From NCBI GenBank assembly GCA_044360365.1, contig JBIKKL010000001.1, positions 3,531-67,530 on the forward strand: a stretch of DNA of 64,000 nucleotides. Direction: 5' to 3'. Shown here piece after piece: positions 44,831-60,810 of this stretch. Made by a program: the position numbers and the translations under genes. Within the stretch, counting starts at the first letter, position 1. The number at the start of each line of letters is the position of its first letter. This DNA comes from Burkholderiales bacterium (GTDB lineage: Bacteria; Pseudomonadota; Gammaproteobacteria; Burkholderiales; WYBJ01). Under the pieces are notes generated by a model that did no database searches, was not told the DNA's origin, and was given only the letters and a program-made list of their open reading frames with translations.

Positions 44831-44912
44831 GACGGCATCTGCTTTCCGGCTGCAAGAAACGAAGACCCGATGTTAGCCCGAAGGCAGCGAATCGTTGGTC
44901 GATTGCCGAAAA

Positions 44913-46928
44913 CTACTCCCCGCGACCCGCAAACCCCAGGGTCTTTTCGAGGCGTCGATCGAGTTTCAGGTTGTCGTTGCGGATGCGGGCGTTGCGCCGC
45001 TCGGCGGCCGCCTGCGATGCCGCCTGAACGAGCCGCAACAGCCACGGGGATGCGCGCAATGCCAGGCCCGCGTTGGCGGCGAAACGCGTGAGCCACGGCG
45101 AATTGGTGCGGAAGAGTTCATCCTCCAGCGACACGAGCATGACGCAACTGCCCGGATCCCCCTGGCGGGCGCAGCGACCGTAGAGCTGACGATCGATCCG
45201 CGCAGACTCGTGGCATTCGGTGAGGATGACGTGCAACCCGCCGCGCGCGGACACTTCGCTCGAGATCTTGATGTCCGTGCCGCGCCCGGCCATGTTCGTC
45301 GCCACGGTAACGGCGCCCGGCAGTCCAGCCCTCGCCACGATCTCGGCCTCCTCGCGATCCTGCTTGGCATTGAGCAGCAGGTGTTCGATTCCACGCTGGG
45401 CAAGCACCGCGGACAAGGCCTCGGATGCCTGGACCGAACGTGTTCCGATGAGCACCGGGCGTCGCTGCTCGATCGCGCAGCGCTGCGCCTCGTCGGCCAC
45501 CGCCTCCCACTTCTGCGCCGCCGTCGACAACAGCCTGCCTCGCCGAAAGCCGCGCCGGCTGGGTCGGTTGAGCGGCACCTTCACGACACCCAGTCGGAAG
45601 ATGGACCAGATTTCAGGCGCGACCTCCATCCCGGTGCCCGTCATGCCAGCGAGGCGCAGGTAGCGTCGGAAGAGGCGCTGATAGGTGATGCGCGCAAGCG
45701 TCTCGCGCCGCGCAGTGATCTCGACGCCCTCCTTGGTCTCGATCATCTGATGCAGCCCGCGCTCCCACGAGCGATCGGCCATGATGCGGCCGGTGAACTC
45801 GTCGACGATCTGCACCTTCCCCTCCGCGACGACATAGTGCTGATCGAGGAGGAAGAGATGGATCGCCGACAGCGCCTGTCGCAAGAGTTCTTCCCGGGTG
45901 CGCTTGGAGGTCCAGACGCCTTCCTGCTGCTCGCTCCACTCGTCGAGCCAGCGCTTGCCCGACTCGCGCAGCTCGACATAGCGCTCGCGCCGATCGATCA
46001 CGTAATGATCGCCTTCGATCATGGATCGTGCGAGCGTGAGTGCCTGCTCGCACATCTGGCCCTCCTTCTCGTCCTCACGCGACGCCGAGAGGATGAGCGG
46101 GGTGCGTGCTTCGTCGATGAACACGCTATCGGCCTCGTCGACGATGGCGAAGTGCAGCCCGCGCAGCACCACGCGATCGGCGATGCTGCGCCCGTCGCGC
46201 AAGCGCGCAAGCGCGATGTGCGCCGCACTTCCCGAGCTGCCCAGCGCAACACGATCGCGCAGGTAATCGAAGGCGACATCCTTGTTGGTGCAATAGGTCA
46301 CGTCGCAGGCGTACGCGGCGCGGCGCAGATCCGGCGCCATCTCCTGCGTCACTACGCCGACCGTGAGCCCGAGAAAACGGTAGATCGGCCCCATCGATTC
46401 GGCGTCGCGAGCCGCGAGATATTCGTTGACCGTGATGACATGCACCGGTACGCCCGCCAACGCGGCCGTGGCCGCCGGGAGTGTGGCCGTCAATGTCTTG
46501 CCCTCGCCCGTCTCCATCTCGACGAGCCGTCCCTCCAGAATGCCCCAGCCGCCCATCAGCTGCACGTCGAAATGCCGCTGACCTACGGTGCGTCCGCCGA
46601 CCTCCCGCAACAATGCGAATACTTCGCCAACCACCGGCAGATCGAAGCCGTCGCGCCGGAGCCGCCGCCGCAGATCGACCCCCAGCTCGCGCAGGCGGGC
46701 ATCGGAGATCGTACGCAATGCCGCCTCGTGCGCGGCAGCGTACGGGACGATCCGTTGCAGCCGCCGCGCCGGATTGGCGAACGTCCGAACGGCAGGCTGG
46801 AGCACGCGACTCGTCAACCAGTCGGCAATGTGATCATGCCACTTGGGTTCGTGCTCCACGCGCTCGGGATAGGCTCGCGTCGCCGACAGCTCGGCATCGG
46901 CATGCAGCACGGCAGCACTAGCCCGCAC
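44913..46928 (-). CDS. SecA-like ATPase lacking the C-terminal translocation domains
   Basis: SecA NBD1 is colinear: RHFDVQLMGGWGILEGRLVEMETGEGKTLTATLPA, VITVNEYLAARDA, VDEADSVFIDEARTPLILS. A shortened PPXD follows, then NBD2 with TNMAGRGTDIK and DRQLYGRCARQGDPGS. The protein stops about 60 aa later. The GTG start has GGAG 6 nt upstream. Confidence 0.85.
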   Translation of the reverse strand: MRASAAVLHADAELSATRAYPERVEHEPKWHDHIADWLTSRVLQPAVRTFANPARRLQRIVPYAAAHEAALRTISDARLRELGVDLRRRLRRDGFDLPVVGEVFALLREVGGRTVGQRHFDVQLMGGWGILEGRLVEMETGEGKTLTATLPAATAALAGVPVHVITVNEYLAARDAESMGPIYRFLGLTVGVVTQEMAPDLRRAAYACDVTYCTNKDVAFDYLRDRVALGSSGSAAHIALARLRDGRSIADRVVLRGLHFAIVDEADSVFIDEARTPLILSASREDEKEGQMCEQALTLARSMIEGDHYVIDRRERYVELRESGKRWLDEWSEQQEGVWTSKRTREELLRQALSAIHLFLLDQHYVVAEGKVQIVDEFTGRIMADRSWERGLHQMIETKEGVEITARRETLARITYQRLFRRYLRLAGMTGTGMEVAPEIWSIFRLGVVKVPLNRPSRRGFRRGRLLSTAAQKWEAVADEAQRCAIEQRRPVLIGTRSVQASEALSAVLAQRGIEHLLLNAKQDREEAEIVARAGLPGAVTVATNMAGRGTDIKISSEVSARGGLHVILTECHESARIDRQLYGRCARQGDPGSCVMLVSLEDELFRTNSPWLTRFAANAGLALRASPWLLRLVQAASQAAAERRNARIRNDNLKLDRRLEKTLGFAGRGE

Positions 46929-46995
46929 GCGGGTCGCTCCGAAGCAGCAAGTGCACAGGCGTCACGGTCATCCCAGCCCTCGCAGAATGCGCCGC

Positions 46996-49140
46996 TCAGA
47001 CATTGAATCGGGTCAGGAACAAGCGCCGCAAACCGCGATACCACTGCGTCCCGAGCGGTTCGGGCACGTGGTCGAAACGGACGTAGACCCGACCGCCGTA
47101 GAGGACCGTTGCAGGCGCATCGAGTTCGATCTCGAGCTGGAATACGCGCTGCATCGTCTTCGTGCCCTTGGGATCCCGCGGGTCGATGGGCACGGTACCG
47201 CCGCCCTCCGTCGACAAGGCCTTGCTGGGCAGTTCCTCGTTGCCGCCGGGAACCTGACGCACGATGCGCGCCTTGACGACATGCTCGACACGAGCGGCGG
47301 TCCGGATCTCGACTTCGTTCGTCGCCAGCCGTACGACGTCGACTTCGGCCTGCTGCACGATCACGCGCGCCCGCGGCTGCGCCGGCTCGATGACGTAGCC
47401 CACCATCTCGCCCTTGCGGAAATACCGTCCCGGCAGATCCGCCGGGTGCGGCACGGTGAACACGCCGGCCGACCGGCTACGGGCGATGAGATCGGCGCCA
47501 CGATCGACGGCGCGCTGCAGCGCGGCCAGCTCGCGGTCGAGCGCCTCCTGGGTGATCTGCGCCTGTACCCGGTCCGTGATGAAGTGATGGGCGAACTGTG
47601 CATCGAGTTCAGCCACCTTCGCCTGCGCCACCCGGATCTCGGCATCGAGCACCGGATCGATGCTCTCGATCAGGGCTTCGTCGGGCTGCACCCGGGACCC
47701 GGGTTCGACCAGATAGCGCGTGAGAAATCCATTGGCGCGGGCGCGGACCATCTGCTGCTCCGGCAGCCAGATCACGCCTTCGGTCTGGGTACGAAACGGG
47801 ACCGGCACCCAGAGAACGAATGCGACCGTGACCGCCAGTGCACCGAAACACACGCCTGCCACTCGCCGCCGATGCCGCGCCAGACGCGGACTGGTCGCCA
47901 GGTGATGCACTGTCTTGGACACGGGCACGACCGCCATGGCGATCACCGCCCAGATCGCGAGCACCACGCCGATCACGAAAAACTCGCCGGCGATGAACAG
48001 GATGATCGCGACGACGACGACGATGCGATACAGGAACGACCCGATGCCATAGAAGACGAACCACGCCTTCTCGCCCGGTGTCCCTTCGGGCTCTTCGATC
48101 TCGCGCGCTCCGAACAGGTGGCGCTCGAAAAGAAAGCCGAGGTAACGCATCGAGCGCGTCGCGAGGTTCGGAATCTCGATCAGGTCCGACAGAATGTAAT
48201 AGGCGTCGTAGCGCAGCAGCGGATTGCCATTGAACAACAGGGTGGACACCCCGGCGATCAGCATGACGTTGAAGGCCACGGCCCGCACCGTGCCCGGCTC
48301 GGCCAGCATCCAGACGAAGAACGCGATGGCCGCGAGCATCAACTCGATCATCATGCCGGCGGCGCCGACGACAGCGCGCTCGTATTTGGATTTGAAGAGC
48401 GCCGAACTGGTCGCGTCGACGTAGGGCACCGGCATGAGCACGAGCAGCATCAGGCCCATGTCGTGCACTTCACCGCCGCCGGCCTTCGCAGCGATCCCGT
48501 GCCCCAGTTCGTGAAACGCCTTCAGGAGCGGAAACAGCAGCCAGATCATCAACAGGTTGTCGACGGCGAAGACCCGATCGGCCACGCCGTGCGTGAGCTC
48601 GTCCCAGTGCGGGGGCACGAGCAGCAGCGCCGGAACCACGATGGCCAGCCAGACGAGCATGCCCTTCCAGCCCCAGAACGGCCGCACGAAGGGCAGCATC
48701 CGTTCGAGCAGTCGGTCGGGATCGATCAGGGGCACCTTGATCGCCATCGGATTGCCGATGGCCCGCTTGACTCGCGCCCGGTCCTGGCGCTGCGCGCGGT
48801 CGAAGAGTTCGGCCACGTCAGGCGACACGTCGCACTGAAGCAGGTCGGACGAGTGCAGCTGGCCCAGCAGATGAATCAGTTCGTCCTGACTCGGCGCCGA
48901 CTCGCCCAGGCGCTTGTTCGCCATTTCCCACAGTGCACCGACGCTGCGCTCGCCGTCCATGCCGTTCATGATGAGCCGGGCCGCAGGCGTGAATCGATGC
49001 GCGCGCCCCGACGCGGGATCCTGCAGGACGAACCAGACCTGGCCGCGGTAGCGATGTCGCTGCATGCGCGCATGCGTGCGCATGCGAGGCTTCAACTCGC
49101 TGACCCGATACCACGAAGCGCTCAGCAGCGGGCCGGTCAT
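46996..49140 (-). CDS. Site-2-protease-type zinc metalloprotease (peptidase M50-like) with an N-terminal PqqD/RRE-like region and a C-terminal HlyD-like periplasmic domain
   Basis: HELGH at nt 48499-48513 and a second motif NGNPLLRYDAYY (NxxPxxxxD). There are multiple TM helices, and the C-terminus combines a barrel-sandwich with a coiled coil (IRVAQAKVAELDAQ...). An alternative GTG start lies at 49209. Confidence 0.8.
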   Translation of the reverse strand: MTGPLLSASWYRVSELKPRMRTHARMQRHRYRGQVWFVLQDPASGRAHRFTPAARLIMNGMDGERSVGALWEMANKRLGESAPSQDELIHLLGQLHSSDLLQCDVSPDVAELFDRAQRQDRARVKRAIGNPMAIKVPLIDPDRLLERMLPFVRPFWGWKGMLVWLAIVVPALLLVPPHWDELTHGVADRVFAVDNLLMIWLLFPLLKAFHELGHGIAAKAGGGEVHDMGLMLLVLMPVPYVDATSSALFKSKYERAVVGAAGMMIELMLAAIAFFVWMLAEPGTVRAVAFNVMLIAGVSTLLFNGNPLLRYDAYYILSDLIEIPNLATRSMRYLGFLFERHLFGAREIEEPEGTPGEKAWFVFYGIGSFLYRIVVVVAIILFIAGEFFVIGVVLAIWAVIAMAVVPVSKTVHHLATSPRLARHRRRVAGVCFGALAVTVAFVLWVPVPFRTQTEGVIWLPEQQMVRARANGFLTRYLVEPGSRVQPDEALIESIDPVLDAEIRVAQAKVAELDAQFAHHFITDRVQAQITQEALDRELAALQRAVDRGADLIARSRSAGVFTVPHPADLPGRYFRKGEMVGYVIEPAQPRARVIVQQAEVDVVRLATNEVEIRTAARVEHVVKARIVRQVPGGNEELPSKALSTEGGGTVPIDPRDPKGTKTMQRVFQLEIELDAPATVLYGGRVYVRFDHVPEPLGTQWYRGLRRLFLTRFNV

Positions 49141-49216
49141 TGCTCGCGACAGCGCAGACGGCGGGTCGACGCGACCTTGGCGGAACCCGCGCACGCCAGG
49201 GCATGGCACACGACCA

Positions 49217-51112
49217 TCACGGCATCCAGCTCCAGAATGCGAGGCGCACCCAGTCGATGAGCTTGTGCGTCCAGATCCAGATCAGGCGCCGCTCGCCGAT
49301 GGCAACCTTGCCGACGCCTTCCATGCCGGGTCGCAGCCTTTCGCTGACAACTGCCATCTTCGCTTCGACACGGAAGTAGTTGCGGCCCTCGTCTGCCGTC
49401 GACACCGGTGTAATGCGCGCAACGGTAAAGGGCTGCCGCGCTCCCGGAATCCCGGACAGGACGAGTTCGCCCTCCTGCCCGACGGCGAGATACGTGATGT
49501 CGCGCTCGTCCACTTTCAGTATCACGCGATAGGCATCGAGCGGCGCAATCTCGAACAACACCTTGCCTTGCTCCACGGGCGTGCCGAGGAGCTGGCTCAG
49601 ATCACCGCTGACGACGATGCCGTCGAACGGTGCGCTGATGCGCGAGCGGGCGAGCTTCTCGTTGATCAGCTGCAGCTGGGCCTCGGCCTGATTGACCTGA
49701 GCACCGACGACGTTCATCGTCGGCCGATCACGAGTCGCGAGCGCCTGGCGGTACTTGCGCAGGTGCTGCTCGCGTTCCGCTTCCCAGCGGGTACGCTCCA
49801 GCAGCAGCTCCTTGTCATCGAGTCGCGCGAGCAGCGCCCCGGCTTTCACGACATCGCCTGCCCGCACGAGACTTTCAGCAATGTAGCCCTCGAAGGGCGC
49901 GACGGCTGCGCGCTGGACCTCGCCCTCCACGACGGTCTTGGCCGCCACACGATGCTCGCCATCGGCAAGACTCAAGAACAACAGCACGCCCAGCACGACC
50001 GCGGCGATCAGCTTCCAGCCGGGGTGCCGCGGCCCGAAGAAGGCACGCGTCCCGGCGACGAGCCCATCCCACGCACGACGCGGTATGCCGCGCTCGTTGT
50101 CCCGCTTCAGATCGAGGACCGGCCCAAGGAGCAACCCCAGCGTTCGCACCAGTTCGAGCGTTGGCACATCGAAGACCGCGCCACGCGTGCGTTCGAGCAT
50201 CAGGACGCCCCAATCCTCGCCGTGTGCATTCAGGGGCGTGGATACGATGGCGATGTCGCCCGCTTCCTGGGCCAGCGCCAGGTGCGAAGCACCGCTCAGC
50301 GCTTCGTCTCCGGGGGCGGGAAACACGAAGGTCGCCCCGAGATCCAGTGCTTCGTCCATGGCATCGCCGAGGCGACGCGCGAGACTGGACTTCGGATCGA
50401 ACATGGCCGTGTGCGAGATCGCGAGCACGCGGCATTCGCCATGCTTGTCCATGCCGATGCTGACGCGCTCGCATTCCAGGCGCCGAGCGATATCGTTTGC
50501 TATGGCGAGCGCCGCCGCCCTGAAGCGCTTTTCCTGAACAGCCGTTGCGACCAGCTCCGTCGCCAGCGCCAGCCGGTCGATGGCGGCCTGGCGCTGCTCG
50601 AACTCGCGCTGGCGGAAAAGATCGACCAGCCAGGCCGCCCCCCAGTGGATGAGACGCAAGGCGCGCTGCAGATCGCGACTGGCCCGGGGCGCGAGATCGA
50701 GCACCACGGCGCCATGCAGGGCGCCCGCCACTTCGATGGGATAGGCGACTTTCGCGCCGCGCAGCTCCCGAGATTCGCCCGCGTCTTCGCCCGTATCGAC
50801 CACGCCCTGCCGCTCGGTCAACGCTCGTTGGGCAGTGGGGGCAAGATGGGTCATGTCCCGACTGACGTCGGGCCAAATGGCCCCCGGGACGTAGGTATTC
50901 TCGGTATCCGAGCGGATCAGGAGCAGCGCGCCGAGCACCTGTTCGACTTGCGCGCAGAGGATGGCAAGCCAGCTCGCGTAAAACTGATCGACCGAGTTTG
51001 CCGCAACGAAGGTGCTCCAGGTCGACGCGTCGGCGTCGCCTGCGAGGTCCTGTGCGCCGGGGGCGGCACGCGCGTCCTCGAGGGTGCGCTCGATTTCCGT
51101 GGTCGATGACAT
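49217..51112 (-). CDS. GAF-GAF-TM-HlyD family membrane-fusion (periplasmic adaptor) protein
   Basis: Two GAF-like blocks in the N-terminal ~335 aa are followed by the TM helix WKLIAAVVLGVLLFLSLA. A HlyD-type lipoyl/coiled-coil/beta-barrel region comes next (VEGEVQRAAVAPFEGYI...RISAPFDGIV...). Confidence 0.8.
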   Translation of the reverse strand: MSSTTEIERTLEDARAAPGAQDLAGDADASTWSTFVAANSVDQFYASWLAILCAQVEQVLGALLLIRSDTENTYVPGAIWPDVSRDMTHLAPTAQRALTERQGVVDTGEDAGESRELRGAKVAYPIEVAGALHGAVVLDLAPRASRDLQRALRLIHWGAAWLVDLFRQREFEQRQAAIDRLALATELVATAVQEKRFRAAALAIANDIARRLECERVSIGMDKHGECRVLAISHTAMFDPKSSLARRLGDAMDEALDLGATFVFPAPGDEALSGASHLALAQEAGDIAIVSTPLNAHGEDWGVLMLERTRGAVFDVPTLELVRTLGLLLGPVLDLKRDNERGIPRRAWDGLVAGTRAFFGPRHPGWKLIAAVVLGVLLFLSLADGEHRVAAKTVVEGEVQRAAVAPFEGYIAESLVRAGDVVKAGALLARLDDKELLLERTRWEAEREQHLRKYRQALATRDRPTMNVVGAQVNQAEAQLQLINEKLARSRISAPFDGIVVSGDLSQLLGTPVEQGKVLFEIAPLDAYRVILKVDERDITYLAVGQEGELVLSGIPGARQPFTVARITPVSTADEGRNYFRVEAKMAVVSERLRPGMEGVGKVAIGERRLIWIWTHKLIDWVRLAFWSWMP

Positions 51113-51230: not shown

Positions 51231-53033
51231 TCACTTCGAATCGAGTCGCACGTTCACGTAGCTGCCGGGTGCCGCCTCCACGACCTTCAACTTGCCGTCC
51301 CCCGGCGTCCTTGCGGGGACCATGGCGCCGGCGTGTTTGCCGACCCACGACGCCCAGTCCGTCCACCACGACCCCGGATACTGCTTCGCCTGCTCGAACC
51401 AGGCATCCGGCTCACCCTGAGGTTTCGGCCCGGTCCAGTAGCAGTACTTGTTGCCGGCCGGCGGATTGATGATGCCCGCGATGTGTCCGGAGCCCCCGAG
51501 TACGAACCGCACCGGGCCGGCAAGCAACTGCGCGCCGGAGAAAGTCGACTTCCAGGGTGCGATGTGATCCTCGATCGTGGAGATGAAATAGGCCGGGATC
51601 CTGATCTGCGTGACGTCGATCGGCACGCCACCCAGGGTGATTCCGCCCGGTTCGCGCAGCGCATTGCGGATATACATGTTGCGCAGGTAGAAGGCATGCA
51701 TGCAGGCCGGCATGCGGGTCGAATCCGAATTCCAGTGCAGCAGGTCGAAGGGCATCGGCTCCTTGCCGAGCAGGTAGTTGTTGATCACGAATGACCAGAT
51801 CAGGTCGTTGGAGCGCAGCATGTTGAACGTGTTGCCCATCTCCGAGCCCTCGAGGTAGCCGCGCTCGTTCATGCGCTGCTCCAGCGCGGCGACCGTCTGC
51901 TCGTCGGTGAACACGCCGAGCTCGCCGGGCTCTTCGAAGTCGATCAGGCTGACGAAGAACGTCGCGCTCGCCACGCGCGCGGCCTGCTTCTTTGCCGTCA
52001 GGTACGCCAGCGTGCACGCGAGCAGCGTCCCGCCCAGGCAGTAACCGATGACGTTCAGGCTTTTCTCGCCGGTGGCTTTCTCGATCGCATCCATCGCAGC
52101 GAGCGGGCCTTCGAACATGTAGTCCTCGAAGCTCTTCTGGGCGAAACGCTCGTCGGGATTGGCCCAGGAGACTACGAACACGGTATGGCCCTGTTCCGAG
52201 GCCCAGCGCACGAAGGAATTCTTCTCGCGCAGATCGAGGATGTAGAACTTGTTGATCCAGGGCGGAATGATCAGCAGCGGCTTGGCGTGAACCTTGGGCG
52301 TGCGCGGCTCGTACTGGATGAGCTGGATGAGATCGTTCTGGAACACCACCTTCCCCGGGGTGGTGGCGATGTTCTCGCCGAGCTTGAACGCCTTCGGGTC
52401 GGTCATCTTGACGCGGACCTGGGTGCCGTTGCCTCGATCGAGGTCTTCGAGCAGGTTCTTCAGCCCCTCGACGAGGTTCTTGCCCCCCGTCGCAGCCGTC
52501 TCGCGCATTACTTCCGGATTGGTCAGGGCGAAGTTGGTCGGCGAGAGCGCATCGATGTACTGGCGCGTGTAGAAGTCGACTTTTCTGGCCGTCGTTTCGT
52601 CGAGCCCCTCCACTTCCGCCACCGCGTGGTGCAAATGCTTCGCAGTGATCAGGTAGGACTGCTTGATGTAGTCGAACACGAAGTTCTGCTCCCACTCCGG
52701 ATCCTTGAAGCGGCGGTCGGCCTTGTCCGGAACGGCCACTGGATTCGCCGGCTGCCCGAGCATGCGCATCATGGCGCCCTGCCAGAGCGTCATGTAGTCC
52801 TTCCAGAGCTTCATCTGCACTTCCGCGAGCTTCATCGGATCCGACATCATCTTCGCGGTCAGGTCGAAGAAGGCCTTCGCGATGCCCATCTCGTCGCCCA
52901 TGCTGAAATGGCTCGTTTTGGAGTCGGCCTGTCGCTGCATCGCAGCCGCAATCAGCCGGCTGCTTTTCTCGGCGATCTCCGCCAGGGTGTCGGGCGCAAT
53001 GTGAATTGCAGGCGTTTCCTTCGGTGGGCTCAT
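51231..53033 (-). CDS. phaC: Class I poly(R)-hydroxyalkanoate synthase
   Basis: The lipase box is GYCLGG, with FVVSWANPD and GGSGHIAGIINPP. The length is 600 aa from MSPPKE. Confidence 0.93.
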   Translation of the reverse strand: MSPPKETPAIHIAPDTLAEIAEKSSRLIAAAMQRQADSKTSHFSMGDEMGIAKAFFDLTAKMMSDPMKLAEVQMKLWKDYMTLWQGAMMRMLGQPANPVAVPDKADRRFKDPEWEQNFVFDYIKQSYLITAKHLHHAVAEVEGLDETTARKVDFYTRQYIDALSPTNFALTNPEVMRETAATGGKNLVEGLKNLLEDLDRGNGTQVRVKMTDPKAFKLGENIATTPGKVVFQNDLIQLIQYEPRTPKVHAKPLLIIPPWINKFYILDLREKNSFVRWASEQGHTVFVVSWANPDERFAQKSFEDYMFEGPLAAMDAIEKATGEKSLNVIGYCLGGTLLACTLAYLTAKKQAARVASATFFVSLIDFEEPGELGVFTDEQTVAALEQRMNERGYLEGSEMGNTFNMLRSNDLIWSFVINNYLLGKEPMPFDLLHWNSDSTRMPACMHAFYLRNMYIRNALREPGGITLGGVPIDVTQIRIPAYFISTIEDHIAPWKSTFSGAQLLAGPVRFVLGGSGHIAGIINPPAGNKYCYWTGPKPQGEPDAWFEQAKQYPGSWWTDWASWVGKHAGAMVPARTPGDGKLKVVEAAPGSYVNVRLDSK

Positions 53034-53047
53034 GGAATGGCTCCGGT

Positions 53048-54097
53048 CTAGGCGGCGACGAACCGCAGCACGCCGTCCGGGTGACTTTCGCGTCGAAGTC
53101 GGCCGGCATGCATCAGATGATTGAGATGGGCGATGCACTCGCCCATGGCGAAATACCAGCCGCGATCGTCCAGCGGACGGCGGAACAGAACGGGAACGAG
53201 ATCGGTCGCGCTCTTCGGTTCGGTGCAGGCGGCCAACAGATCGTCGAGGCGCTCTGCGTGATGCATCTGCAACTGTTCGATCCGACCATGCAGGCCGCGG
53301 AAGGGCAATCCGTGCGAAGGCAGGATCAGCGTGTCGGCGGGCAACGCGGTAAAGCGTTCGATGGAGTCCAGGAAGCGGCCCAGCGGATCCCCATCCGGTT
53401 CGACCGGTCGCACGCTGACGTTGGTGCTGATGCGGGGCAACATCATGTCGCCGGCGATCATGACTCCCAGCGCTTCGCAGTAGAGCGATGCATGCTCCGG
53501 TGCATGCCCGTACCCGGGGAGCACCTGCCAGGCGTGGCCCCCGATCATTAGGTTCTCGTGCGGCATGATGCGGTGGAACGTCGGCGGCAGTTCAACAATG
53601 AGGCGGCGATACGCGCCGGAAAACGCCTTCATGCCCTCCAGCCGCGATTCCGGCAGCCCGTGACTGCGAAAGAGGTCGAACATCGAGCCGCGGTGATGCC
53701 CGGGAGTTTCGTGGTAAAGGGCAAGCGCGGTGAGGTATTCACCCTCGGTCATCCAAAGCGGCGCATTCCACCGCTTCGCATGCCAACCCGCCAACCCCAC
53801 CTGATCTGCATGATAGTGAGTTACCACTAACCTTTGAATTTTCCGGGCCGCAACGCCTTCGGCGAAGTAGCGCTCCCACAACTCGATCGTGGGCGGGTCA
53901 TTGAGGCCGCAGTCGACCAGGGTCCAGCCGTCTCGATCTTCGAGCAGCCAGAGGTTGATGTGATCGAGCGCAAACGGCAAGGGCATCCGCAGCCAGTGCA
54001 CGCCGGGTGCGACCTCGCGCGTCGAGGCGGGCTCGGGGACCTGGTCGCCTAGAACGTAGTCGATCGGCGAAGCGGTTGCGGACGATGCAGTCGTCAC
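53048..54097 (-). CDS. MBL-fold metallo-hydrolase
   Basis: VVTHYHADQVG (HxHxDQ variant), LPGYGHAPEH, and LPSHG. GTG start. Confidence 0.85.
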   Translation of the reverse strand: MTTASSATASPIDYVLGDQVPEPASTREVAPGVHWLRMPLPFALDHINLWLLEDRDGWTLVDCGLNDPPTIELWERYFAEGVAARKIQRLVVTHYHADQVGLAGWHAKRWNAPLWMTEGEYLTALALYHETPGHHRGSMFDLFRSHGLPESRLEGMKAFSGAYRRLIVELPPTFHRIMPHENLMIGGHAWQVLPGYGHAPEHASLYCEALGVMIAGDMMLPRISTNVSVRPVEPDGDPLGRFLDSIERFTALPADTLILPSHGLPFRGLHGRIEQLQMHHAERLDDLLAACTEPKSATDLVPVLFRRPLDDRGWYFAMGECIAHLNHLMHAGRLRRESHPDGVLRFVAA

Positions 54098-56478: not shown

Positions 56479-58257
56479 GTGACTTCGCTTTCCAATCGAC
56501 CCGGGCCACACCCCCGCAATCACCTGCGACCGCTCGCCGCCGTCGCACTCCTGGTTATCGGCCTCAACGTGCAGGCGCAAGTCGCCCGACCGTCCCAGCC
56601 CGAGCCCGCCAGCGGACGCACCGAAAACGCGCTGGCCCACGGCCGGGAATACATGGTCGCCGCGGCCCATCCGCTGGCGGTGGAAGCAGGCTTGAAGATG
56701 CTCGAGCGCGGCGGCACCGCTGTGGACGCTGCGATCGCCACGCAACTCGTGTTGAACCTGGTCGAGCCTCAGGCCTCCGGCTTGGGCGGCGGCGCCTTCC
56801 TCATGCATTTCGATGCGACCAGCGCGACGACGCGTGCCTATGACGGTCGCGAAACGGCCCCGGCAGGCGTAGACGAGAGGCTCTTCCTCAAACCCGACGG
56901 CAAGCCCATGGCGTTTCCCGACGCGGTTGCCGGCGGACGCTCGGTCGGCGTGCCGGGACTCGCTCGCCTGCTCGGCCTCGCCCACCGCGATCACGGCAAA
57001 CTTCCCTGGGCCACGCTGTTCGGCCCTGCCATCGAACTGGCGGAATCCGGCTACCCGCTCACGCCGCGCGTCCATCATCTGCTCGGGCGCGCAGCCGGGC
57101 TCGCTGCCGACCCCGCCGCCCGCGCCCTGTTCTTCGACGACGCAGGACAACCCAAACCCGCAGGCACGCTGCTCACGAACCCTGCCTTCGCGGCGACGCT
57201 TCGGGCGCTCGCACGCGATGGCGCAGACGCCTTCTATCGCGGCGACATTGCCAAGCGCGTCGTTGCTGCGGTACGGGACCACCCGGTCAATCCCGGCACG
57301 CTGAGCGAGGAAGACCTCGACCGCTACGCCGTCCGCGAAGTGACGCCGCTGTGCGGCCCCTACCGCAGCTATCGGATCTGCGGCATGCCGCCCTCGTCAT
57401 CCGGGGGCATTGCCGTGCTGCAGATGCTCGGCGTGCTGTCGCACTTCGACATGGCCGACGTGCGCCCGGTCTCGGCCCAGGCGGCGCACCTGCTCTCGGA
57501 AGTCGCGCGCCTCGCCTTTGCCGATCGCAATCGCTACGTCGCCGACGACCGCTTCGTGACCGTGCCGGTCACGGGGCTCCTCGACCCGGCGTACATCGAG
57601 TCGCGCGCACGCCTGATCCGGCTCGAGCGATCCATGGGCAAAGCGCAGCCGGGCACCCCGCAAGGCGTGACGACGGCGCACGCGGACGACCGCTACGACG
57701 AAGCCAGCGGCACGAGTCACATCGCGATCGTCGATCGCAACGGCAACGCCGTATCGATGACGACCACGATCGAATCGTTCTTCGGCGCACGCATCATGGC
57801 TGGCGGCTTCCTGCTGAACAACCAGCTGACGGACTTCAGCTTCGTGCCCGAGCAGGGGGGGCTGCCCGTCGCAAATCGCGTCCAGCCCGGAAAGCGGCCG
57901 CGCAGTTCCATGGCCCCCACTCTGGTCTTCGACAACTCCGGCAAACTGCACATGGTGGTCGGCTCGCCGGGCGGTAGCCTCATCATCGCCTATGTCGTCA
58001 AAGCGCTGGTCGGCACGCTGGACTGGAAGCTCGACATCCAGGCTGCCATCGATCTGCCCAACATGACGAGCCGCAACGACGCCACCGAGATCGAGGCCGG
58101 CACCGAAGCGGAGACGCTGCAGGCCGCCCTCGTCGCGATGGAGCACGTCGTTCGGCGCATCGACATGACCAGCGGCATCCACGGCATCGCACGAACTCGG
58201 GAGGGTTGGACCGGCGGCGCCGATCCGCGACGTGAGGGCATTGCGAAGGGCCGATAG
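56479..58257 (+). CDS. ggt: Gamma-glutamyltransferase
   Basis: A signal peptide (LAAVALLVIGLNVQAQ), then GGTAVDAAIA and GLGGGAF. The nucleophile Thr lies in GTSHIAIVD, and GSPGGS follows. The GTG start at 56479 is chosen; the 901-aa track ORF is a spurious 5' extension. Confidence 0.9.
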   Translation: MTSLSNRPGPHPRNHLRPLAAVALLVIGLNVQAQVARPSQPEPASGRTENALAHGREYMVAAAHPLAVEAGLKMLERGGTAVDAAIATQLVLNLVEPQASGLGGGAFLMHFDATSATTRAYDGRETAPAGVDERLFLKPDGKPMAFPDAVAGGRSVGVPGLARLLGLAHRDHGKLPWATLFGPAIELAESGYPLTPRVHHLLGRAAGLAADPAARALFFDDAGQPKPAGTLLTNPAFAATLRALARDGADAFYRGDIAKRVVAAVRDHPVNPGTLSEEDLDRYAVREVTPLCGPYRSYRICGMPPSSSGGIAVLQMLGVLSHFDMADVRPVSAQAAHLLSEVARLAFADRNRYVADDRFVTVPVTGLLDPAYIESRARLIRLERSMGKAQPGTPQGVTTAHADDRYDEASGTSHIAIVDRNGNAVSMTTTIESFFGARIMAGGFLLNNQLTDFSFVPEQGGLPVANRVQPGKRPRSSMAPTLVFDNSGKLHMVVGSPGGSLIIAYVVKALVGTLDWKLDIQAAIDLPNMTSRNDATEIEAGTEAETLQAALVAMEHVVRRIDMTSGIHGIARTREGWTGGADPRREGIAKGR

Positions 58258-58347
58258 GCGGGCGGTCCTTTCAGCGCCGTCCTGCAATAGTTTGCCTGCA
58301 TAATGACGACGGGGCGAACTACACGTCATCCACCCAGGGAGATAGCC

Positions 58348-58875
58348 ATGGTCAAGAAGATCGCCGGCGTTTTCGCCGCACTTGCTGGAACCGTCCTCGT
58401 CCTGGCCATCATGCAGCCGGACAGCTTCACCGTTCAGCGCTCGACCGACATCCAGGCCCCGCCCGAGAAGATATTCCCCTTCGTCGACGATTTCGCACGG
58501 TGGCAGGCGTGGTCGCCGTGGGACAGCAAGGATCCCGCCATGACACGGACGATCAGCACGCCGAGCGCCGGCAGGGCGGCCACCTATGCCTGGGAAGGCA
58601 ACGATGACGTTGGCAAGGGCCGGATGACCATCGTCGAATCGACCCCGCCGAGCCGTGTTGCCATCAAGCTCGACTTCACCGCCCCCTTCGAGGCCCACAA
58701 CGACGTTGCCTTCACGATGGAACCGAAAGGTGCAAGCACGCAGGTGACCTGGACGATGCAGGGCCCGATGCCCTTCGTCAGCAAACTCATCGGCGTGTTC
58801 GTCAGCATGGACACCATGGTGGGCAAGGATTTCGAAACCGGCCTTGCGAACCTCAAGGCCGCGGCGGAGAAATAG
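58348..58875 (+). CDS. SRPBCC (START/polyketide-cyclase-like) family protein
   Basis: An N-terminal hydrophobic segment is followed by F.V.RS..I.APPEKIFPFV.DF..W..WSPW, typical of this family. AGGGAG SD. Confidence 0.78.
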   Translation: MVKKIAGVFAALAGTVLVLAIMQPDSFTVQRSTDIQAPPEKIFPFVDDFARWQAWSPWDSKDPAMTRTISTPSAGRAATYAWEGNDDVGKGRMTIVESTPPSRVAIKLDFTAPFEAHNDVAFTMEPKGASTQVTWTMQGPMPFVSKLIGVFVSMDTMVGKDFETGLANLKAAAEK

Positions 58876-58986
58876 CCTGCAAAGGACAAAGCGCTCGGAT
58901 CGCCACCGCCGGGCGATCGATCGACCTATACTTGCATTCGACAGCGCCTCGGTCGAGGTGCCCTCGACGGCCATCAGGAGGATGCC

Positions 58987-60171
58987 ATGAACGATCCCAT
59001 CGTCATCGTCGGTGCCGCGCGCACACCCATGGGCGGGTTTCTCGGCGATCTCGCTGCCGCCCCCGCCGCAGAACTCGGCGCTTGTGCGATACGTGCCGCT
59101 GTCGAGCGCACGGGCTTGAGCGCCGCTGCCATAGACGAAGTGATCATGGGCAACGTCCTGCCGGCCGGTCAGGGTCAGGCCCCCGCCCGTCAGGCCAGTC
59201 TCGGCGCAGGTCTGTCCGAAGCCGTCGGCTGCACCACCATCAACAAGATGTGCGGCTCGGGCATGAAGGCCGCCATGCTCGCTCACGACCTGCTGCTCGC
59301 CGGGACCAATCGCGTGATGGTCGCAGGCGGCATGGAGAGCATGTCGAACGCCCCGTACCTGCTGCCGAAAGCACGAGCCGGCATGCGTCTCGGGCACAGC
59401 GACGTGAAGGACCACATGTTTCTCGACGGGCTCGAGGATGCCTACGACAAGGGCCGACTCATGGGCAGCTTCGCCGAAGACTGCGCAGCCCACTATCGAT
59501 TCAGCCGGGAGGCGCAGGACCGCTTTGCGATCGAATCGCTGACGCGCTCGCAAGCCGCCATCCGCAACGGCAGTTTCCAGGGCGAGATCGCGCCCGTCAC
59601 GATCACGACGACCAAGGGCGACAAGACGATCCCCCAGGACGAACAGCCCCTCAAGGCCAATCTCGAGCGCATTCCGACGCTGCGACCAGCCTTCCGCAAG
59701 GATGGTACGGTGACAGCCGCAAACTCGAGTTCCATCTCCGACGGTGCCGCGGTCCTGGTCATGATGCGACTCTCCGAATCGCAGCGGCGCGGGGCTCGAC
59801 CGCTTGCGCGCATCGTCGGGCATGCGACCCACGCGCAGGCGCCGGGCTGGTTCACGACGGCACCCGTAGGCGCGATGCGCACGCTTTTCGAGAAGACGGG
59901 CTGGCGCGCCGCGGACGTGGATCTTTACGAAGTCAACGAAGCCTTCGCCGTCGTGACCATGGCCGCGATGCACGAATTGAATCTGCCGCACGACAAGGTA
60001 AACGTACACGGCGGCGCCTGCGCGCTGGGCCATCCCATCGGGGCCTCGGGCGCGCGAATCATCGTGACCCTGCTGGCCGCCCTCGACAAGTACGACCTGA
60101 AACGTGGCGTTGCCTCGCTGTGCATCGGTGGCGGCGAAGCCACGGCGATGGCGCTCGAACGCATGCACTGA
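58987..60171 (+). CDS. Acetyl-CoA C-acetyltransferase (thiolase II)
   Basis: NKMCGSGMKA (active-site Cys), NEAFA, GGACALGHPIGASGARI, and CIGGGEA. Confidence 0.95.
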   Translation: MNDPIVIVGAARTPMGGFLGDLAAAPAAELGACAIRAAVERTGLSAAAIDEVIMGNVLPAGQGQAPARQASLGAGLSEAVGCTTINKMCGSGMKAAMLAHDLLLAGTNRVMVAGGMESMSNAPYLLPKARAGMRLGHSDVKDHMFLDGLEDAYDKGRLMGSFAEDCAAHYRFSREAQDRFAIESLTRSQAAIRNGSFQGEIAPVTITTTKGDKTIPQDEQPLKANLERIPTLRPAFRKDGTVTAANSSSISDGAAVLVMMRLSESQRRGARPLARIVGHATHAQAPGWFTTAPVGAMRTLFEKTGWRAADVDLYEVNEAFAVVTMAAMHELNLPHDKVNVHGGACALGHPIGASGARIIVTLLAALDKYDLKRGVASLCIGGGEATAMALERMH

Positions 60172-60207
60172 CCCGCCCGTCGCCCTGCCCGAAGAGAAAG
60201 GTTCGCC

Positions 60208-60810
60208 ATGACGAACGCAATCGACTTCTACTTTGACTTTTCCTCGCCCTACGGGTACCTCGCGAGCACGCGCATCGATGCGCTCGGCGCGAAGTTCCAG
60301 CGTCACGTGCGCTGGCACCCCATCCTGCTCGGGGCGATCTTCAAGGTCTCCGGCGGCGCACCCCTGACGACGATTCCGTTGAAGGGCGAATACTCGATCC
60401 ACGACATGGTTCGCAGCGCACGCCTCTACGACGTGCCGTTCAGGATGCCGAGCAAGTTCCCGATTCCGACCCAGCATGCTGCACGCCTGACCCTTTGGGC
60501 GCAGCAGGCGGACGAAGCCCAGGGAAAACGCATGGCGGGCGCGCTGTACCGGGCCTACTTCGCCGACGACCGCGACATCTCGAATCCCGAGGTCTGCGCC
60601 GACATTGCGGCCGAAAGCGGTTTCGATCGCGCTGCAGCCGTCGCCGGAATGAACGCTGCCGCAGTCAAGGAGGCGCTGAAGTCCGAGGTCGAACAGGCCA
60701 TCGAACGCAAGGTGTTCGGCTCCCCATTCGTGATCGTCGACGGCGAGCCGTTCTGGGGAGCCGACCGACTCGACCAGGTCGAGCGCTGGCTGATCACCGG
60801 CGGGTGGTGA
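60208..60810 (+). CDS. 2-hydroxychromene-2-carboxylate isomerase family (DsbA-like) protein
   Basis: [16 protein letters not shown] and [19 protein letters not shown]. Confidence 0.87.

Follow-up and report, generated by a model that had tools for sequence, protein, structure and literature searches.

The closest described relatives of the gene analysed here are secondary SecA proteins that contain SecA_DEAD without SecA_SW and are encoded beside Peptidase_M50-like, GAF/HlyD and HlyD/Biotin_lipoyl proteins (Kamneva, Poudel and Ward 2015, PLoS One, PMC4452313). These authors proposed that the ATPase has been co-opted into a type I-like system, of which the M50 protein is a possible membrane component, and pointed out that the partners can lie elsewhere in the genome. 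We found no functional or experimental follow-up of this proposal in the literature. The gene at 44913–46928 on the minus strand of a 64,000-nucleotide stretch of contig JBIKKL010000001.1 (the whole stretch is called the window below) is a new member of this computationally described family from a Burkholderiales-like lineage. Its product, like the members already described, has SecA_DEAD and SecA_PP_bind; it lacks SecA_SW, which in those members is missing or fragmentary, and its neighbours are a GAF/HlyD protein and a protein in which a weak Peptidase_M50 match is joined to HlyD. The separate HlyD/Biotin_lipoyl protein that usually accompanies the family, and the OEP protein that sometimes does, are both lacking in this window. 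What is new here is the recognition of the catalytic motifs, the PqqD-like domain and the MexA-like adaptor end of the M50 partner, together with the adjacency of giant proteins in related loci, and it is this giant-neighbour link that forms the main addition to the existing literature. The earlier paper makes no mention of the PqqD-like domain, catalytic-motif conservation, DUF3467, SapC, the RTX or LEPR-XLL giants, or a substrate (PMC4452313).

Our preferred interpretation, held with modest confidence, is that the SecA-like protein is the motor of an export and processing machine coupled through adaptors to TolC, in which it would do the work that falls to the ABC transporter in a type I system. 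The argument is built on the domain content of the protein, the point at which its chain is truncated, the conservation of its motifs, the synteny of its gene, the lack of a linked ABC transporter, the adjacency of giant genes in relatives, and purifying selection.

The features of the motor gene, all on the minus strand, are as follows.

44913–46928, minus strand: SecA-like motor, GTG start, TAG stop at 44913–44915, 671 residues
46767–46928, minus strand: N-terminal extension, residues 1–54, 36 residues longer than in E. coli SecA
46494–46508, minus strand: Walker A motif GEGKT, residues 141–145, K144 equivalent to E. coli K108
46179–46235, minus strand: 19-residue insertion in NBD1, residues 232–250, not found in B. 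subtilis or E. coli SecA
46128–46139, minus strand: DEAD motif, residues 264–267, D264 equivalent to E. coli D209
45738–46058, minus strand: PPXD (Pfam SecA_PP_bind), residues 291–397, model positions 4–110 of 110, E 5e-26
45129–45533, minus strand: NBD2 (P-loop_SecA), residues 466 to about 600, E 4e-50
44931–45047, minus strand: terminal long helix, residues 628–666, equivalent to E. coli 621–660, the first scaffold helix; the chain stops five residues further on

Re-reading the DNA gives the same open reading frame (ORF), length and in-frame stop as an earlier interpretation made from the letters and their translations (the sequence-only reading); the gap to the SDR gene just past the stop is 82 nt, where 83 nt had been given. 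Compared with canonical SecA (E. coli b0098, 901 residues; B. subtilis, PDB 3jv2 and 6itc), the protein has NBD1, PPXD, NBD2 and the first scaffold helix in colinear arrangement and keeps the ATPase motifs, but it has no wing domain, two-helix finger (IRA1) or Zn/SecB-binding tail, and both its N-terminus and its NBD1 insertion are its own. Alignment with E. coli K-12 SecA (MAFFT) gives 43% identity over 613 columns, with K144, D264 and R549 paired with E. coli K108, D209 and R509. A Pfam scan places SecA_DEAD at residues 53–441 (E 6e-102) and finds SecA_PP_bind and P-loop_SecA, with no match to SecA_SW in the 671-residue protein at E <= 0.01. The four motifs quoted in the sequence-only reading are all present, GEGKT being followed by VDEADSVFIDEARTPLILS (residues 263–281), TNMAGRGTDIK (544–554) and DRQLYGRCARQGDPGS (579–594), and the core residues are invariant across a 33-member family alignment; NBD2 holds the arginine finger of motif V, R549, as well as the motif VI sequence QLYGRCARQGD.

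The segment between the two nucleotide-binding domains had been described as visibly shorter than in canonical SecA, and this is not generally so. The Pfam PPXD model is covered almost from end to end, and 164 residues separate the DEAD aspartate and the glycine of GMTGT here, compared with 162 in B. subtilis SecA and 180, about 16 more, in E. coli SecA, so that the PPXD falls inside the canonical size range. The real differences from canonical SecA in the N-terminal half are the 19-residue NBD1 insertion and the 36-residue longer N-terminus. Within the insertion, a region of low model confidence, S234, H237, L240, L243 and R244 are nearly invariant in the family. The N-terminal extension, which stands in place of the canonical lipid-binding N-terminus, keeps a family motif, RPYPER.E.EP.WHD, in which E22, R23, D32 and A35 are invariant.

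The last residue, E671, pairs with E665 of the 901 residues of E. coli SecA, an end point that leaves out the wing domain, the two-helix finger and the C-terminal tail, as had been predicted. It lies about 70 residues past the last NBD2 strand (594–600), where about 60 had been estimated. The chain had been described as ending after the start of the helical scaffold; in fact the entire first long scaffold helix is retained. In the AlphaFold2 model (pLDDT 74.4, pTM 0.72), strand 594–600 is followed by three short helices and the single long helix 628–666, and there the chain ends. Every top Foldseek match is a SecA, and the model is SecA-like through residue 666. It superimposes best on SecY-bound, closed-clamp SecA structures (TMq 0.77 for 6itc, 0.74 for 5eul, 0.72 for 3dl8 and 3din), with other SecA structures superimposing less well (TMq 0.52–0.63).

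This end point is nearly that of N668, one of a series of engineered E. coli SecA deletions (N68/N609 to N668; PMC5456053; PDB 5k9t). The engineered fragments have a de-repressed ATPase and do not translocate preprotein, those from N649 to N668 combining high ATPase activity with 0% translocation of pOmpA, whether with liposomes, SecYEG or membranes (Hsieh et al. 2017, PMC5456053). By analogy with these fragments we infer that the 671-residue protein does not push substrates through SecY, in agreement with the sequence-only reading. The deletions differ from it in being laboratory constructs of a housekeeping protein, whereas the present protein is a paralogue found in nature and under selection, with partners and an N-terminus of its own.

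Several lines of evidence bear on whether the short length is natural. Homologue clusters, at least 120 among the matches listed, are 647–700 residues long, nearly all of them 659–673, at 57–92% identity, and a scan of one genome per species finds relatives encoded in at least 574 species-level genomes. The family alignment shows the C-terminal sequence ...AERRNA..R.QNLKLDRRLE..L.F.GRGE kept up to the final glutamate, and a metagenome contig in ENA, independent of the present one, encodes an identical 671-residue protein. Measured against a 93%-identical relative (L083), the ratio of nonsynonymous to synonymous substitution rates (dN/dS) is 0.067 for the SecA-like gene and 0.048 and 0.071 for its M50 and GAF partners, with 0.067 and 0.105 for the flanking PhaC and SDR genes; the range for the SecA-like gene is 0.067–0.18. 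All three genes of the module are under purifying selection in the window lineage. A sequencing frameshift, an assembly artefact or a decaying secA pseudogene, which nothing but the short length would suggest, is ruled out by the uniform length of the homologues, the conservation of the C-terminus to its end, the identical independent contig and the dN/dS values; the 574 genomes with relatives and the mere 82 nt between the stop codon and the next gene speak against it as well, and the chance that we leave to it is negligible. We conclude that the gene encodes a real, conserved and naturally short SecA paralogue.

The curated family models place it apart from both SecA and SecA2. All NCBIfam models of the two match strongly yet under cut-off, with matches ending at about position 600 of 770–790. 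Of the canonical models, TIGR00963 gives 595.9 bits (cut-off 814) and NF009538 gives 591.3 (cut-off 800), and the SecA2 models TIGR03714, TIGR04221, TIGR04397 and NF012136 give 462, 444, 535 and 381 bits against 930, 725, 1085 and 1100, their matches stopping at positions 541–600 of 762–776. A tblastn search of the window for a second SecA-like sequence returned only the gene itself; relatives sit on megaplasmids, which implies a chromosomal secA elsewhere. Family members are variously named by PGAP as 'prepilin peptidase', 'DEAD/DEAH box helicase', 'translocase', 'preprotein translocase subunit SecA' or 'hypothetical protein' (L086, L087, L090, L091).

Two partner genes precede the motor gene on the same strand.

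46996–49140, minus strand: partner 1, M50-adaptor fusion, 714 residues; the mechanical ORF is 23 codons too long at its start
49217–51112, minus strand: partner 2, GAF-adaptor fusion, 631 residues, with a GAF domain, one transmembrane helix and an HlyD domain

The M50-adaptor protein begins with a cytoplasmic PqqD-like domain, a recognition element (RRE) of the kind associated with ribosomally synthesised and post-translationally modified peptides (RiPPs). This assignment draws on a weak NCBIfam PqqD match, on Pfam PF05402 matches to some homologues and on PGAP names, and in the model the domain has a topology of three strands and three helices. Six hydrophobic segments follow between residues 157 and 445, and the M50 zinc-site motifs, HELGH (210–214) and N304-x-N-P...D312, are invariant. 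The best family match is to the daptide intramembrane metalloprotease (E 1.4e-44, positions 6–365 of 379, under cut-off). The C-terminus, residues ∼450–714 (∼270 residues), is a periplasmic membrane-fusion domain with an alpha-hairpin, and matches the MexA, MacA, AcrA and EmrA adaptors at E ∼1e-9. In the GAF-adaptor protein a cytoplasmic GAF sensor is connected by a transmembrane helix, residues 365–383, to a periplasmic HlyD domain with matches to HlyD_3 and HlyD_D23. PGAP names for the M50-adaptor fusion are 'PqqD family peptide modification chaperone' or 'hypothetical protein'.

Comparison with other species shows that the three genes are kept side by side. The comparison set comprises 80 loci from other species in which the motor is 50–60% identical, among them Alpha-, Beta-, Gamma- and Deltaproteobacteria, Nitrospira, Rokubacteria, Syntrophorhabdus and further groups. 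Wherever the upstream DNA reaches far enough, in ∼65 loci, the genes stand without exception in the order GAF-adaptor, M50-adaptor, SecA-like. Four annotated plasmids show the same order of GAF-membrane-fusion protein, M50-membrane-fusion protein and SecA-like gene, and stop and start codons overlap between module genes in several annotated loci. No more than 2 of ∼95 loci contain an ABC signature motif, in neither case beside the module, and the window has none; no ABC family is present among the recurrent flanking clusters. The idea that the motor has been re-purposed for the adjacent membrane proteins, already put forward in the sequence-only reading, is supported by the invariant gene order, by the lack of a linked ABC transporter and by the earlier survey (Kamneva et al. 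2015).

The genes that recur around the module in the comparison set are these.

Directly downstream, 65 of 80 loci: small HlyD/biotin-lipoyl adaptor, ∼287 residues
Directly upstream, 26 loci: DUF3467 protein
Upstream, 12 loci: RTX calcium-binding giant protein
Upstream, 9 loci: SapC
Nearby, 20 loci: TolC/OEP-like cluster

The giant proteins are of most interest for the question of substrates. A same-strand open frame of at least 900 residues is seen in 24 of the 43 loci that have at least 3 kb upstream, most of these frames being cut by the locus edge. On the four plasmids, which come from the cultured strains Methylosinus C49, Pontibrevibacter nitratireducens, Pseudosulfitobacter DSM 107133 and Mesorhizobium ciceri R30, a coding sequence of 26.5–38.2 kb (∼8,800–12,700 residues) is followed by the DUF3467 gene and then by the module, with the small adaptor downstream in two of the four and, in one of them (Methylosinus), a TolC family gene after that. 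By eye, a LEPR-XLL motif is present at the N-terminus of all four plasmid giants; the NCBIfam model NF012209 (LEPR-XLL) matches both of those scanned (E 4e-7 and 8e-8), and the motif also opens long ORFs beside the module in ∼7 further loci (L031, L046, L053, L055, L062, L065, L067). In the literature consulted the LEPR-XLL motif is not linked to a SecA-like/M50/adaptor module; one account mentions a recently acquired secA without drawing a connection. Judged from their sequences and position, the giant LEPR-XLL proteins beside the module are candidate substrates.

L088:1384–1410, L089:1459–1485, L093:1–450, L094:1–450: LEPR-XLL starts in the plasmid giants
L001–L009, L023, L027, L033, L034, L043, L050, L075, L081, L091: loci bearing a common C-terminal tail, for example L001:4902–4973 and L033:5458–5517

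The common tail, W-[LV]-x-[DE]-F-[LV]-x(3-18)-[ND]-P-N-x-x-[ILM]-x-[IV], lies 2–25 residues from the stop and is present in 15 giants and in a contig-truncated ORF in L050. In a six-frame translation of 1.26 Mb the strict pattern has 10 matches, all upstream of the module, on the module's strand and C-terminal, and none elsewhere in the 1.26 Mb or in the window; as the pattern was derived from these sequences, only this lack of off-target matches counts as evidence. Pfam and NCBIfam hold no curated family that matches the tail, their matches being confined to the RTX repeats before it. The tail may act as a signal for secretion, for sorting or for anchoring.

Between the giant ORF and the module lies a gene that differs among loci. 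It is SapC in the closest alpha/beta group (L001–L009) and DUF3467 in most others, including L011, L013, L015 and L018 and all four plasmids; the two occur together only in L001, where DUF3467 is downstream. SapC is otherwise familiar from S-layer type I secretion operons. For DUF3467 we found no informative literature, and no relative of solved structure by sequence. A single case of another kind is the Methylosinus plasmid (L086:18336–20273), where a gene for an adenylate/guanylate cyclase is found ∼4 kb downstream; the cyclase could supply the GAF domain with a cyclic nucleotide as ligand.

A mechanism can be proposed for the preferred interpretation, in which the protein drives adaptor-coupled export. 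The motor would retain ATP hydrolysis and the polypeptide clamp formed by the PPXD against NBD2, and is without the parts that couple SecA to SecY and restrain its ATPase, that is, the wing domain, the two-helix finger and the C-terminal tail. It may dock on the cytoplasmic face of a complex of the M50-adaptor and GAF-adaptor proteins and thread an unfolded polypeptide into it, from N- to C-terminus. The PqqD-like domain would recognise a leader on the substrate, and the M50 site, still catalytic to judge from its motifs, probably cleaves that leader. The two periplasmic adaptor domains would link the complex to a TolC-type outer-membrane channel, joined in most relatives by the third, small adaptor, while the GAF domain could gate the system in response to a small ligand. 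The likely substrates in many relatives would be the giant surface or RTX-type proteins encoded beside the module.

A more specific proposal, which we offer only tentatively, is that the module is a distinct envelope-spanning secretion system for the LEPR-XLL giants (8,000 to >12,000 residues). The PqqD-like domain would recognise the LEPR-XLL motif, the M50 enzyme would cleave, and threading would proceed N-terminus first and possibly co-translationally; where present, the small adaptor and TolC would be part of the system. ABC-driven type I export proceeds C-terminus first and waits for the complete chain, a problem that a route taking the N-terminus first would therefore avoid.

The likeness to type I and tripartite pumps (HlyBD-TolC, MacAB-TolC and the peptidase-containing ABC transporters) lies in the alpha-hairpin membrane-fusion adaptors, in the TolC-family genes found in a subset of loci, and in the RTX repeats near the C-terminus of many of the neighbouring giants; the peptidase-containing transporters, in addition, also combine protease activity with an export ATPase. 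In contrast to these systems, the present module has no ABC transporter, its motor is a soluble SecA-type protein, its intramembrane M50 enzyme is fused to an adaptor, and its candidate substrates carry a motif, LEPR-XLL, at the N-terminus. Giant proteins of Omnitrophota and Actinobacteria also involve an internal SecA_DEAD domain without scaffold and wing (SecA_SW) (bioRxiv 10.1101/2023.11.21.568195), but in those cases the giant itself contains the motor as one of its domains, whereas here it is a separate 671-residue protein with M50 and adaptor partners.

Several observations weigh against export as we propose it. M50/site-2 proteases are not known to serve as protein-conducting pores, so that a pore would need an oligomer of the two adaptor fusions. 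The closed-clamp shape of the motor may reflect a bias of AlphaFold, and the models are of moderate confidence (pLDDT 74 for the motor; for the M50 protein, pLDDT 69 and pTM 0.40). In about 45% of related loci the examined flanks contain no giant gene. The window and the close relatives have no small adaptor, TolC, DUF3467, SapC, giant or LEPR-XLL gene within 64 kb, and the C-terminal tail motif and the RTX giant are likewise not found in the window; for the small adaptor, the window was searched by tblastn with an exemplar at E <= 0.01, and the gene is not beside the module in the close relatives L081, L083 and L085 either. Two of these, L083 and L085, share the arrangement PhaC, module, SDR seen in the window, and the 79%-identical L081 has a protein of at least 2,382 residues upstream in place of PhaC. 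With only the three-gene core in the window, the substrate and outer-membrane partner must be encoded elsewhere. The window offers nothing direct on the substrate in this genome, and the link to giants comes from the relatives. Finally, the module genes of M. extorquens, apart from the GAF gene, are barely expressed in exponential growth (PMC4452313).

Other functions for the module can be set against these data. One is regulated proteolysis or signalling, the classical business of M50 enzymes being regulated intramembrane proteolysis: the SecA-like protein would be an unfoldase that feeds the M50 protease under GAF control, with no transport across the envelope. The invariance of the M50 catalytic motifs and the GAF sensor on the first protein would fit such a role, as would the purifying selection on the core in a window lineage that has no adjacent secretion substrate. 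Both membrane partners, however, have full periplasmic membrane-fusion domains with the alpha-hairpins of outer-membrane channel adaptors, an extra adaptor and TolC often adjoin the module, and neither anti-sigma nor sigma-factor genes recur in the flanks; we think this function unlikely. Another is maturation and export of a RiPP-like peptide: the PqqD-like domain would bind a leader, the M50 enzyme would remove it, and the motor and adaptors would expel the product, in the manner of daptide or YydF-type systems with a different ATPase. It draws on the daptide metalloprotease match of the M50 partner and a further match to YydH/LiaK (3e-8), on the PqqD-like N-terminus of that protein, and on the JGI label of homologues, 'putative peptide zinc metalloprotease'. 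Both matches nevertheless fall under their curated cut-offs (153 against 300 bits and 33 against 225), the flanks of the 80 loci show no recurrent radical-SAM or other modifying enzyme and no recurrent gene for a short precursor, the recurrent neighbours being instead giants, DUF3467, SapC, adaptors and TolC, and a short peptide would need no processive polypeptide motor. We regard a peptide system as quite improbable.

The remaining function to be considered is that of an accessory, SecA2-type ATPase acting on the housekeeping SecYEG for special substrates. SecA2 proteins keep the scaffold and the two-helix finger, and act with SecY or SecY2. They resemble the present protein in being a second SecA-family ATPase, presumably for special substrates (TIGR03714, TIGR04221, TIGR04397, NF012136; PDB 4uaq, 6sxh), and the identity to E. 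coli SecA, the retained PPXD and clamp, and a phylogeny that puts the clade beside actinobacterial SecA2 (PMC4452313) are all in keeping with such a role. Fragments N643–N668 of E. coli SecA, moreover, still give channel activity with SecYEG in oocytes, yet the equivalent fragments give 0% translocation (Hsieh et al., PMC5456053). SecA2 proteins are 760–790 residues long, and the alignments stop ∼170 residues before their ends; the present protein has no C-terminal scaffold region, wing domain, two-helix finger or C-terminal tail, and falls far under the cut-off of all four SecA2 models. It is also tied to adaptor and M50 proteins: its gene never stands alone, the two adaptor fusions always precede it, and the flanks contain neither secY2 nor asp genes. 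A SecA2-type function is in our view very unlikely.

The surroundings of the module in the window are of a housekeeping character, with genes for PhaC, an MBL-fold hydrolase, an acyl-CoA dehydrogenase, a gamma-glutamyltranspeptidase and a carboxyltransferase upstream; SDR, an enoyl-CoA hydratase, a Band 7 protein and pyruvate dehydrogenase E1 are encoded downstream. The PhaC gene, a class I polyhydroxyalkanoate synthase (51231–53138, minus strand), is listed with 635 residues compared with 599–600 in relatives, and its true start is probably ∼35 codons past the first GTG. Long antisense ORFs of 681–1026 residues lie over real genes at 44895–47006, 46951–49260 and 49064–51109 on the plus strand and at 57397–60477 on the minus strand; those tested match no family, and spurious ORFs of this kind are typical of DNA with 65% GC. 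The longest of them, the 1026-residue ORF at 57397–60477, is treated as spurious because no Pfam family matches it and it runs across better-supported genes of the plus strand. Elsewhere in the order, a Burkholderiales metagenome-assembled genome (GCA_022841915.1) contains two whole modules, L081 (JALHQN010000010.1) and L049 (JALHQN010000031.1), with motors respectively 79% and 52% identical to that of the window and in different contexts, and either paralogous systems or contamination of the bin is possible.

SecA is among the best-studied of molecular motors, and this family amounts to an experiment of nature: motor and clamp have been kept, the SecY-coupling and auto-inhibitory parts removed, and what is left joined to a protease-adaptor and a sensor-adaptor fusion. 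The names that PGAP currently gives to its members, from 'prepilin peptidase' to 'SecA', do not describe it. The module occurs in culturable rhizobia, methylotrophs and roseobacters, among them Methylobacterium extorquens AM1 (META1p2399–2402), Mesorhizobium ciceri R30 (plasmid genes LRP29_RS31435–31460) and Pseudosulfitobacter DSM 107133. Some of the largest bacterial proteins, such as the giants of the Chlorochromatium symbiosis, still lack an export route, and the module would be a candidate for it if the link to the giant neighbours holds.

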